Assembly: GCF_000027125.1 (NCBI RefSeq) | Contig: NC_017626.1 | Origin: Escherichia coli 042 | Lineage (GTDB): Bacteria > Pseudomonadota > Gammaproteobacteria > Enterobacterales > Enterobacteriaceae | Strand: one strand, 5' to 3' | Length of the DNA stretch: 64,000 nucleotides | Part shown: piece by piece, positions 15,001-18,000 of the stretch | Layout of the letters: each line of letters starts with the position of its first letter | Position numbering within the stretch: the stretch's first letter is position 1 | Program-made: the position numbers

Positions 15001-18000
15001 GATTGCCGCGCCACAGGTATTAGCAAGCTGAATAACCGCCACCTGAATAGACCCGGCTTTTTCTGCCTGATCGGCCAGTGAGCGGGTGATCCACGTTGAC
15101 CAGCCGACAGGAACCAATGCAAAAGTTAGCCCCCAGATAATCGCCACGCCGGTAGCAACGATTTTATCGCTTCCCCACAACGTCAGCACCAACGCACTCA
15201 CTGCCAGTATTAACGGCGCGCCCGCTAAGGCCAGTTTTACCGAACGTTTAAGAATGAACGACGAAAGCGACGTACCAATAAAGCTGGCGATACCAAAACT
15301 CAACAGCACCAGCGTTAAACCATCCACGCCGAATCCCGCCAGGTTCATATACACCGGGCGAATATACGTGAAGAAAGCAAACTGCCCGGCGAAAGACATG
15401 AAGATGGCGATCATCCCTGCCATCACACCCGGACGTTGTAATAAGCGGAAAGTATTTTGTTTCTGATGCGAGGGTTCGCCTGGCAGCGAAGGCAATGATT
15501 TGATAATCCAGAAAATACACAGCACGCCCATCACCGCCGCCGCATTAAAGACATTGCGCCAACCGATAAGCTCGCCTAAAAAACTGCCCAACGGTGCGGC
15601 AATCACCAGCGCAATAGAAACCGCGCCGAAGATCACCGACAGCGCCTTCGGCACCGTACGCGGAGGTACCAGACGCATGGTCAGCGACGCCGACATCGCC
15701 CAGAACCCGCCCAGCGCCAGCCCCAGACAGGCACGACCGATTAAAAGCAAACTGAATGAGTTAGCAAAGGAAACCAGCAAGCAGGAGAGCGTCAGCAAAA
15801 CGGCAAACAAAATAACAACGTAGCGGCGGTCAGTGGCCTGAATTGTCTGGGTAATAAACAAACTGGCAAACATTGCCACAAATGCGGTCACGGTCACCGA
15901 TTGCCCGGCAACCCCTTCCGAAATGCCTAAATCCTGGGCCATTGGCGTCAACAAACTGACGGGCAAAAACTCAACGATAATCAGACAGGCGACACAAAAC
16001 GCCACCGAGAAAACGGCTGACCAGTTCGGTCGGGTGATGGCATCCGCGCCGCGGTTTTCGGCAATAAATTCACTCATGGTGTTACCCGTGGCATGTTTCA
16101 GGGGAAAAGCCGACCACTTTAACATTGAAATGTGTGACGCATTTAACGTTTTTGCAACTTTTACGGTGTTGTGGGAAAAGTTCGAGGCTGCTCGAAGAAA
16201 TAAAAATCATAGGGCAAGGTGATATGCATTTTCGCGATTAGGTTGGGAATAAGGGATAAAGTATTGCACTTGGTGATATACTTTAATAACAGGATCTCAA
16301 CGATATGCGCGTGTTTAAAACCAAATGGTTTGCAAGGGAAGCCAGGTCTCATGCAATAACAGATGAAGAGTTGTGCCGGGACATTTTAGAAACGGAACAA
16401 GATAAAGCTGATGTACTTGGTGGTGGCTTTTTTAAAAAGCGCCTTCACAAAAATCGTGAGCGTGCAATTATTCTGGCGAAAGGGGGAAGCAATTGGTTTT
16501 ACACGTTTTTATATGCAAAACAGGATATGTCGAACATTAATAGTCAGGAACTGGCTGGGTTTCGTGAACTTGCAAAGCATTATGCCTTCCTGACGAAAGC
16601 CCAACTGACAGCAATGATTAACACTAAAGAACTGACAGAGATCTGCTATGACTGCAAAAACTAAATTTAAAAGTCCTGCATTTGAGGCTATTCACAGCGC
16701 AGCGGCTGGATTGTCCAGCGTCAATGCTATTTCTGCCGAAACGATGCGTACTTTTGACAAAGCCTGCCTGACCAGCGTGCAAGACTTACAACCTGTTGAG
16801 ATAAAAGCACTGCGGGAAAAATTAAAAGTGAGTCAGCCCGTCTTCGCTCACTATCTCAATACCAGCGTTTCAACTGTACAAAAATGGGAAAGTGGCGCTA
16901 AACGCCCCAATGGCATTTCATTAAAACTGCTCAGCATTGTGCAAAAACACGGGTTGGAGGTGCTGCTGTAAATAGAACGTAGATAATGCGTTCACCTACT
17001 GTCAGTTCCGATACCGGATGCGGCGTGAACGCCTTATCCACCCTACAGGTCAGGCGCGGTCTGTAGGCTGATAAGACGAAGCGGTTTTAATGCAGCCAGT
17101 GAACACCCTCGGCAGGCTGAAAGAACGCGTTATAGCGCATCTGAAAAGCATTAATATCCTGCATTTCAGGTTCGGTTTCGCGCAGAAAACCCAGCGCCAG
17201 CCTGACCTGAGCATCGGTAATCGGCGCGGCAAGACGGGCTTTTTGTAAAATCCGATGCCATTGCAGCAGGTTCTGTTCGCTACCATCGACAATGACAATT
17301 TGCCAGATAAACAACACCTGCGCGGCGTTTTGCAGGTGCGACTCATCCGGGCGATGCAAATAACGTAAAAATTCGTCACCGGCTGACTTTCCCATTTGAT
17401 CGACCATCGACTCCACGGGTACGACATCGATGTTCAGCCGATCGCTGAGACGGCGAATCGCTTTTCTGGCCCCGGATGTCAGCACCCGAAAACCAACCAC
17501 AAACACTACCGCCAGCGTGGCGAGCATTATCCAGATCATGAGTTCTCCTGCGTAATCAGAACTCATGATATCTGGAAACCCTCGCCAGTTACTAATCCAC
17601 CAGAATAATCTTCAGTGCAAACAGAGCTGCGACCACCACCACACACAGGTTCAGATCGCGCCAGCGCCCGGTGCATACTTTCATGATGCAGTACGACATA
17701 AAGCCAAGTGCAATCCCTTCGGTGATCGAGAAAGTAAAGGGCATCATCACCGTGGTAATAAACGCAGGCACCGATTCGGTAAAATCATCCCAGTTAACGC
17801 GCGCCAGGCTCGAAGTCATCAGCACGCCAACAAAGATTAACGCTCCGGCGGTTGCGTAAGGAGGAACCATCGCCACCAGCGGTGAGAAGAACATAACCAA
17901 CAGGAACATAACGCCGACCACAACCGCAGTCAGCCCCGTGCGACCACCGACCGCCACACCAGAAGTACTTTCAATATAGGCAGTAACAGATGAGGTACCA

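Follow-up and report, generated by a model that had tools for sequence, protein, structure and literature searches.

A predicted toxin-antitoxin operon of the HigBA2/ToxP-AntitoxP family between nepI and yicN in Escherichia coli 042

An overlapping gene pair between nepI and yicN

The stretch analysed here is 64,000 nucleotides of Escherichia coli 042 DNA (NC_017626.1), which we refer to as a whole as the window, with position 1 as its first letter. Two small genes lie within it between nepI and yicN, a predicted RelE-like toxin gene first and its predicted antitoxin gene second. A preliminary description, made from the sequence alone, had proposed a toxin-first pair of open reading frames of 119 and 107 codons with a 17-nt overlap at this place, and these coordinates are confirmed.

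16305 to 16664, plus strand: toxin gene, 119 amino acids from the ATG; predicted PF06296 HigB2/ToxP-type RelE-fold toxin
16648 to 16971, plus strand: antitoxin gene, 107 amino acids; residues 1–45 conserved, XRE helix-turn-helix at about residues 50–103
16648 to 16664, plus strand: 17-nt overlap between the end of the toxin gene and the beginning of the antitoxin gene; probable translational coupling

The toxin is identical to CBG36840.1 of E. coli 042. The RefSeq (PGAP) annotation takes the GTG at 16311 as the toxin start, for a protein of 117 amino acids, even in genomes where the ATG is present; the ATG at 16305 agrees with the conserved N terminus of the family, MR[VI]FKT. The RefSeq labels for the two products are “type II toxin-antitoxin system RelE/ParE family toxin” and “helix-turn-helix domain-containing protein.”

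The product of the first gene matches the Pfam family PF06296. The toxin scores 129.8 bits against this model (E = 7.8e-38), for which the gathering cut-off is 27 bits, with residues 1–113 spanning model positions 1–120. This bears out the earlier placement of the toxin in the RelE superfamily, and by its profile score the predicted toxin is a core member of PF06296. HigB-2 of Vibrio cholerae (VcHigB2), in a sequence that we verified residue by residue against PDB 5JA9, passes the same model at 34.5 bits, and a 2025 review likewise assigns HigB-2 to PF06296 (PMC11980606). Used directly as a query against PDB sequences, the toxin gave no match, either as a single sequence or as a 26-sequence profile.

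A relationship to VcHigB2 emerges at the level of predicted structure. The AlphaFold2 model of the toxin, calculated with 26 relatives in the alignment, has a predicted local distance difference test score (pLDDT) of 83.8 and a predicted template-modeling score (pTM) of 0.75. When this model was compared with the PDB using Foldseek, the ten best matches were all VcHigB2 chains (TM 0.44–0.59, probability 0.99–1.00), and the matches that followed were to Mycobacterium tuberculosis HigB1, YoeB, RelE, and YafQ. As modeled, the toxin has the RelE/BECR fold.

The catalytic residues of VcHigB2 are R51, R64, Y82, and K84 (PMC5416850). An exhaustive profile search with the toxin returned 1746 cluster representatives at E ≤ 1e-3, and the distant members of this set were aligned with VcHigB2 using MAFFT to bridge the two proteins. 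In the bridged alignment, R46, R53, Y70, and K72 of the toxin align with these four residues, in the same order, and the pairing of Y70 and K72 with VcHigB2 was recovered by hidden Markov model (HMM) as well. R53 and K72 are invariant in the bridged family alignment; position 46 is arginine, with lysine in one member, and position 70 is either tyrosine or phenylalanine.

Antitoxin, operator, and characterized relatives

The second gene encodes a protein with an XRE helix-turn-helix at residues 52–96 (HTH_3, 33 bits; cut-off 23), whose closest solved relative is V. cholerae HigA2 (VcHigA2; E = 8e-10 with a single sequence and 2.9e-14 with a profile, over residues 39–101). The protein is thereby HigA2/YiaG-like, in agreement with the COG2944-type Cro/XRE antitoxin first proposed. 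Its scores fall below the cut-offs of the NCBIfam models for YiaG (PRK10072; 29.1 bits, cut-off 110), NadS (NF041265; 41.3 bits, cut-off 60), and MqsA (TIGR03830; 41.0 bits, cut-off 61.8). The predicted antitoxin is related to all three families and is a member of none; in particular, an equivalog score so far beneath the cut-off means that it is not YiaG itself. Ahead of the helix-turn-helix, an N-terminal motif, KFKSPAFEAIHSAA...ETMRxFD, is kept across 25 orthologues. This strong conservation of the first 45 residues is more in keeping with a binding surface than with a simple linker, and residues 1–45 are presumed to form the toxin-binding segment.

The two genes are conserved as a pair. 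We fetched 80 loci encoding relatives of the toxin, from Enterobacterales, Beta- and Alphaproteobacteria, and Gemmatimonadota, and in every one the next gene after the toxin gene encodes an antitoxin homologue. With start codons as called here, the genes also overlap in all 80 loci, and in 56 the overlap is exactly 17 nt.

Upstream of the toxin gene, the following control elements can be read:

16257 to 16285, no strand: predicted operator, an imperfect palindrome, TAAAGTATTGCAC-TTG-GTGATATACTTTA, from its geometry and comparative footprint
16274 to 16282, plus strand: predicted extended −10 element, TGATATACT (TGnTATAnT), within the right arm of the operator; read from sequence
16291 to 16294, plus strand: Shine-Dalgarno sequence AGGA, 10 nt ahead of the ATG start; all aligned orthologues share ACAGGAT

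The palindrome comprises two 13-nt arms (16257–16269 and 16273–16285), 85% complementary and separated by a 3-nt spacer. A shorter inverted repeat, aagtat-N13-atactt (16259–16264 and 16278–16283), had been put forward as a possible autoregulatory operator; the repeat is real and the comparative footprint supports it, but it is only the outer portion of the 13-N3-13 palindrome. The exact core TAGCAC-N3-GTGCTA occurs in 51 of the 80 loci, once per locus, ∼27–75 bp upstream of the toxin start and in several phyla. Since the chance expectation for such a 12-base pattern is only ∼0.001 per 12-kb locus, the conserved motif constitutes a strong comparative footprint. At the E. coli 042 locus the core reads TTGCAC-N3-GTGATA, two positions off the family consensus, and a scan of the window for the consensus with two mismatches found three sites where 1.7 were expected, which is not significant alone. 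The palindrome at 16257–16285 is very probably the operator of the module.

The extended −10 element is conserved as TGCTATA[GCT]T at the equivalent place in orthologues. The −35 is poor, and a generic promoter and terminator scan, which needs a −35 match, called neither a promoter nor a terminator, so we infer the promoter from this element. The sole scan hit, at 16444–16471 inside the toxin gene (one found, 1.7 expected), was considered as an internal antitoxin promoter and is not claimed as such.

A further sequence near the operator deserves mention. At 16218–16230, GGTGATATGCATT echoes the right half-site GGTGATATACTTT (16272–16284) from 54 bp upstream, exactly at the left end of the deletion in K-12 that is described below. 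It could be an auxiliary half-site, or it could be chance.

Past the end of the operon lies a second inverted repeat:

16979 to 17041, no strand: inverted pair of repetitive extragenic palindromic (REP) sequences forming a long hairpin, just past the antitoxin stop; 17-nt arms, 88% complementary

The region 16966–17090 folds with −41.1 kcal/mol (z = −2.6). The REP core recurs elsewhere in the window, and the Rfam family naRNA4, which is REP-derived, matches 16978–17043 on the minus strand at 32.9 bits, below its threshold of 59.5. The hairpin is likely to be the 3′ end of the transcript or to stabilize it.

Among experimentally characterized systems, the closest to the E. coli module is the pair ToxP (CBUA0028) and AntitoxP (CBUA0027), encoded by the plasmid QpH1 of Coxiella burnetii. 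ToxP matches PF06296 over its full length (164 bits), C-terminal helix and strand included, and is 30% identical to the toxin (E = 1e-15); AntitoxP is 55% identical to the antitoxin over 104 amino acids (E = 4e-37), N-terminal region included. The genes are again toxin-first and overlapping, the recognition helix of AntitoxP is near-identical (YLNTSVSTV), and the Coxiella promoter PtoxP has a similar site, TTCAC-TTA-GTGATA, over its −10, with GTGATA common to both systems. Experiments on ToxP/AntitoxP have demonstrated toxicity and rescue, translation inhibition in vitro, binding between toxin and antitoxin, and promoter binding (PMC10098735). By analogy, from the 55% identity to AntitoxP that extends through the N-terminal region, we infer that the E. 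coli antitoxin binds and neutralizes its toxin. With its own promoter, ToxP could be cloned in E. coli in mutated form only, for example as K79E, which abolishes toxicity (PMC10098735); by residue count on the pairwise alignment, K79 corresponds to K72 of the toxin. The systems differ in that ToxP/AntitoxP is plasmid-borne and serves plasmid maintenance, in that its promoter has a consensus −35 (TTGACA), unlike that of the E. coli module, and in that ToxP retains a long basic β2-β3 loop (GKGKRGG), lost from the E. coli subfamily. When plasmids were searched with tblastn, 171 records matched, 19 of them from Coxiella.

HigB2/HigA2 of V. cholerae (VCA0468/0469; PDB 5JA8, 5JAA, 8A0X) has the Pfam family in common with the E. 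coli module and is its best structural match, with the same four catalytic positions and a homologous antitoxin helix-turn-helix. Ribosome-dependent mRNA cleavage and growth arrest have been shown for VcHigB2 only (PMC5416850). However, toxin identity is just 17–20%, with no direct sequence match, VcHigB2 is without the C-terminal extension of the E. coli toxin, and no similarity to HigA2 is detectable in the antitoxin N terminus ahead of residue 39. The residues with which HigA2 contacts bases, R68, E71, N72, and R77, are all four changed in the antitoxin, to S75, Q78, K79, and A84, respectively, and the operator sequences also differ (TGTACGC-N5-GCGTACA for VcHigA2 versus TAGCAC-N3-GTGCTA in the family of the E. 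coli module). What the two operators share is their layout: as in the footprinted VcHigA2 operator (PMC11006873), a single inverted repeat reaches over the −10.

Other known modules are less similar. The relE-yiaG modules described in silico by Gerdes (mBio 2025), for which neutralization was modeled via antitoxin N-terminal helices (PMC11980606), and YiaG of E. coli K-12 (COG2944) offer the likeness of a PF_RelE toxin upstream of a YiaG-like helix-turn-helix protein. The relE-yiaG toxins highlighted there have extended disordered N termini, whereas the E. coli toxin has none, because its start is the first ATG after a stop. MqsR/MqsA and K-12 HigB/HigA (YgjN/YgjM) share the toxin-first order and an XRE-type antitoxin, and the C-terminal domain of MqsA matches weakly; in contrast to these systems, the antitoxin has no zinc-binding N-terminal domain and the toxin comes from another Pfam family, and the antitoxin lies under both MqsA cut-offs (26 versus 30 bits and 41 versus 61.8 bits). 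The relE-1/yiaG-1 and parE-3/yiaG-2 modules of adherent-invasive E. coli (PMC7232551) were set aside as occupying different loci (yiiD-fdhE and the nadR region), and the literature on Acinetobacter baumannii HigBA2 and on Acetobacter contained nothing bearing on the enterobacterial subfamily. On every sequence-level criterion examined, the locus belongs to the HigBA2/ToxP-AntitoxP family, as an uncharacterized member of a known family.

Descent of the module and state of the toxin gene

Of 5426 complete E. coli genomes, 1716 (∼32%) contain the module-specific 787 bp, O157:H7 and O145 among the carriers, always on the chromosome and in single copy, and never on a plasmid. Carrier copies are 97.6%–99.5% identical, one likely assembly artefact aside. 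That copy, from E. coli HS-02 (NZ_CP172818.1, locus 2501–3202; 78% identity), was considered as an instance of decay and rejected; its differences are mostly changes in A-rich homopolymers, and it therefore looks like an assembly error.

K-12 is not a carrier. As the preliminary description had it, the interval in K-12 is without the pair: the nepI-yicN spacer of MG1655 is 210 bp long and contains no gene, and the REP sequence is present both in MG1655 and in the window. Relative to K-12, the difference can be delimited as follows:

16172 to 17011, no strand: segment differing from K-12, 840 bp here versus 41 bp in K-12

The 41 bp of K-12 are a diverged counterpart of the first ∼50 bp of this segment, such that the real gap is ∼16222–17011, with a GAT microhomology at both ends. 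Its right end (17011/17012) falls in the loop of the REP pair, the left half of which is confined to module-carrying strains. Non-carrier genomes match the flanks alone, with a two-piece pattern in nearly all of those sampled. Beyond the GAT microhomology and the REP pair, no target-site duplication, terminal repeats, integrase, transposon ends, or tRNA were found flanking the module.

The preliminary description had the module “inserted” at a strain-variable spot or island. This is probably wrong, and K-12 most likely deleted ∼0.8 kb, because the nepI-module-yicN order recurs in Klebsiella, Citrobacter, and Kluyvera. The full order nepI-toxin-antitoxin-yicN extends to Escherichia sp. E1V33, Citrobacter amalonaticus, Klebsiella indica, and four other Klebsiella, and these genomes have in common a nepI-to-toxin spacing of ∼215–228 bp and alignable spacer DNA. 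The Kluyvera sp. copy (fetched locus 5051–7835) is degraded: the toxin match is cut to 86 amino acids and nepI lies ∼1 kb away instead of ∼220 bp, which suggests an insertion or rearrangement disrupting the toxin. Synonymous divergence (dS) from the orthologue of the cryptic Escherichia clade is 0.12–0.23, which fits vertical descent.

We weighed these observations against the converse history, in which the ancestor of the carriers had an empty, K-12-like spacer and recently acquired the module there as a mobile islet. The patchy distribution in 32% of genomes and the GC content of the module (40%–45%, versus 50%–55% for the flanks) are what such an islet might produce, and an unsupported neighbor-joining tree places the nepI-yicN copies as a basal grade, not as a monophyletic group. 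Members of the family occur on plasmids, and a sister lineage of the same cassette is evidently mobile. In that lineage, the ∼740-bp cassette of operator, toxin, and antitoxin is 86%–95% identical in DNA between Cedecea and Pluralibacter, Edwardsiella, Pectobacterium, and Tatumella (fetched loci ∼5930–6670), with unrelated flanks; Serratia shares the upstream flank as well. Cedecea and Edwardsiella have toxins with 99% identity, and the DNA they share is confined to the cassette. The sister lineage of the cassette therefore spreads horizontally between genera. At nepI-yicN, however, the module keeps the same site, orientation, and spacing from Escherichia sp. E1V33 through Citrobacter, the four Klebsiella species and K. 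indica to Kluyvera, in spacer DNA that can be aligned; the dS values fit vertical descent; the hallmarks of insertion listed above are lacking; the K-12 spacer retains the diverged module-proximal 50 bp; and all 1716 copies are chromosomal and single-copy. Recent acquisition is, in our judgement, quite unlikely. Most likely, the module is an ancestral resident of nepI-yicN in Enterobacteriaceae, and roughly two-thirds of E. coli, including K-12, would have lost it by one ∼0.8-kb deletion.

Both genes of this resident module appear to have been maintained by selection. Relative to the cryptic-clade orthologue, the ratio of nonsynonymous to synonymous differences (pN/pS) is 0.07–0.23 for the toxin and 0.08–0.09 for the antitoxin, values that indicate purifying selection on each gene. 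Among E. coli strains, the antitoxin is near-invariant and the toxin variable; the antitoxin of the window, WP_000125646.1, is identical to that of O157:H7. Compared with its nearest relative, the toxin allele of E. coli 042 has the changes A26D, G33D, and V42F and zero synonymous changes. At least 90% of relatives keep G33, and since G33D hits this conserved glycine, the toxicity of the present allele is not assured.

Variation in other carriers reaches the toxin start codon. In O157:H7 (fetched locus 2578–2580) an ATA takes the place of the toxin ATG, so that translation must use the GTG two codons downstream, 6 nt further from the ribosome-binding site. An identical 45-mer including the ATG is present in 784 of the 1716 carriers; for another 639, megablast found no seed, an outcome that a central mismatch such as ATA would produce and that serves as indirect evidence. 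The IMT16316 lineage (fetched locus 1581–1939) combines the ATA with a stop at W8 and a 1-nt deletion that shifts the frame, and its antitoxin is intact. Judged by a match shorter by 1 nt, this inactivated-toxin type occurs in 3 of 60 evenly spaced genomes, one of which was checked.

These changes raise the question of whether the module is decaying or attenuated, with a toxin that is weak or inactive here and a locus that persists mainly as a helix-turn-helix regulator, as an anti-addiction or orphan antitoxin. The three substitutions private to this allele, the O157:H7 start codon together with the 639 unseeded carriers, the broken toxin beside an intact antitoxin in the IMT16316 lineage, and the better conservation of the antitoxin everywhere all point in this direction. 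On the other side, the toxin reading frame is intact in the window with all four catalytic positions present, toxin pN/pS is far under 1 at greater divergence, and inactivated toxins form a small group. We regard attenuation as unlikely. The module is probably active in many strains, although the present allele may not be.

Of the flanking genes, nepI lies on the minus strand with its ATG at 16077 and gives an NCBIfam equivalog match of 852 bits; yicN, also on the minus strand, ends with its stop at 17087 and matches DUF1198. Beyond nepI, a minus-strand open reading frame of 3806 codons at 3271–14691 contains many tandem Ig-like repeats, and the RefSeq name at a near-identical locus is inverse autotransporter adhesin IatC. 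In both K-12 and O157:H7, the neighbor of nepI is yicS where the window has iatC, and the presence of iatC is therefore independent of the toxin-antitoxin module.

Upstream of nepI, at 16118–16165, lies the block TAACATT...TGTGACGCATTTAACGTTTTTGCAAC, with AACGTT and TTGCAA palindromes. It is near-invariant in Escherichia, Citrobacter, and Klebsiella, in contrast to the remainder of the spacer, which diverges. The block is probably a nepI regulatory site.

Proposed mechanism and significance

Considered together, the data favor a model in which the locus is a chromosomal type II toxin-antitoxin operon of the HigBA2/ToxP-AntitoxP family, an old resident of nepI-yicN, that works in the manner set out here; we place the probability of this reading at about 0.75. 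A single transcript would start from the extended −10 at 16274–16282 and be translated into toxin and then, through the 17-nt overlap, antitoxin. The RelE-fold toxin would most likely occupy the ribosomal A site and cut translating mRNA by means of R46, R53, Y70, and K72, and the N-terminal 45 residues of the antitoxin would neutralize it. Through its C-terminal helix-turn-helix, an antitoxin dimer would bind the palindrome at 16257–16285, covering the −10, and the antitoxin, alone or with the toxin, would thereby shut off the operon. Whatever trigger depletes the antitoxin would then free the toxin.

Several points weigh against this model, beyond the allele changes, the IMT16316 lineage, the tree topology, and the base composition already given. 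Direct sequence similarity between the toxin and VcHigB2 is weak, with hhalign yielding a mis-registered, low-probability alignment. The enterobacterial subfamily is six residues shorter than VcHigB2 in the basic β2-β3 loop, and VcHigB2 with this loop replaced is 120-fold less active (PMC5416850). The subfamily also carries an extra C-terminal helix and strand relative to VcHigB2. Each operator half-site in the window has one departure from the consensus. Finally, the searchable literature yielded no paper on this E. coli locus and no experiment addressing it.

The preliminary description raised persistence, abortive infection, and island stabilization as possible roles. The mechanism would be unchanged if the main biological role were abortive infection against phages. 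RelE/ParE-family toxins have been discussed as defence toxins (PMC11980606), and phage protein families match the pair, phrog_2104 the antitoxin (E = 9.6e-27) and phrog_5869 the toxin (E = 5e-5). Yet no PADLOC model matches the toxin, and the antitoxin draws generic helix-turn-helix hits only; the neighbors are housekeeping genes rather than a defence island; and a search of a phage collection gave one hit, a 515-kb Salmonella contig. An anti-phage function as the main role is accordingly improbable in our estimation. We attach still less weight to the idea that the module, kept by vertical descent, has been domesticated for a host function. In that case the antitoxin, bound 180–200 bp upstream of the divergent nepI, might also tune purine-nucleoside efflux, or the unusually variable N-terminal half of the toxin might reflect an arms race with anti-toxins of phages or plasmids. 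If such a host function existed, loss of the module in K-12-like lineages would carry a phenotype.

For a resident type II operon of the kind favored here, the practical value is modest, and no open problem depends on the module. It would add one more candidate mRNA-cleaving toxin for E. coli O157:H7, enteroaggregative E. coli 042, and many clinical isolates, one that is invisible to work on K-12. Because its operator motif is conserved across phyla, the family may offer a natural system for the study of operator recognition. Within a single species, the module is found as present, deleted, and toxin-inactivated alleles, and it may thus serve as a natural system for the long-term upkeep of a chromosomal toxin-antitoxin pair.

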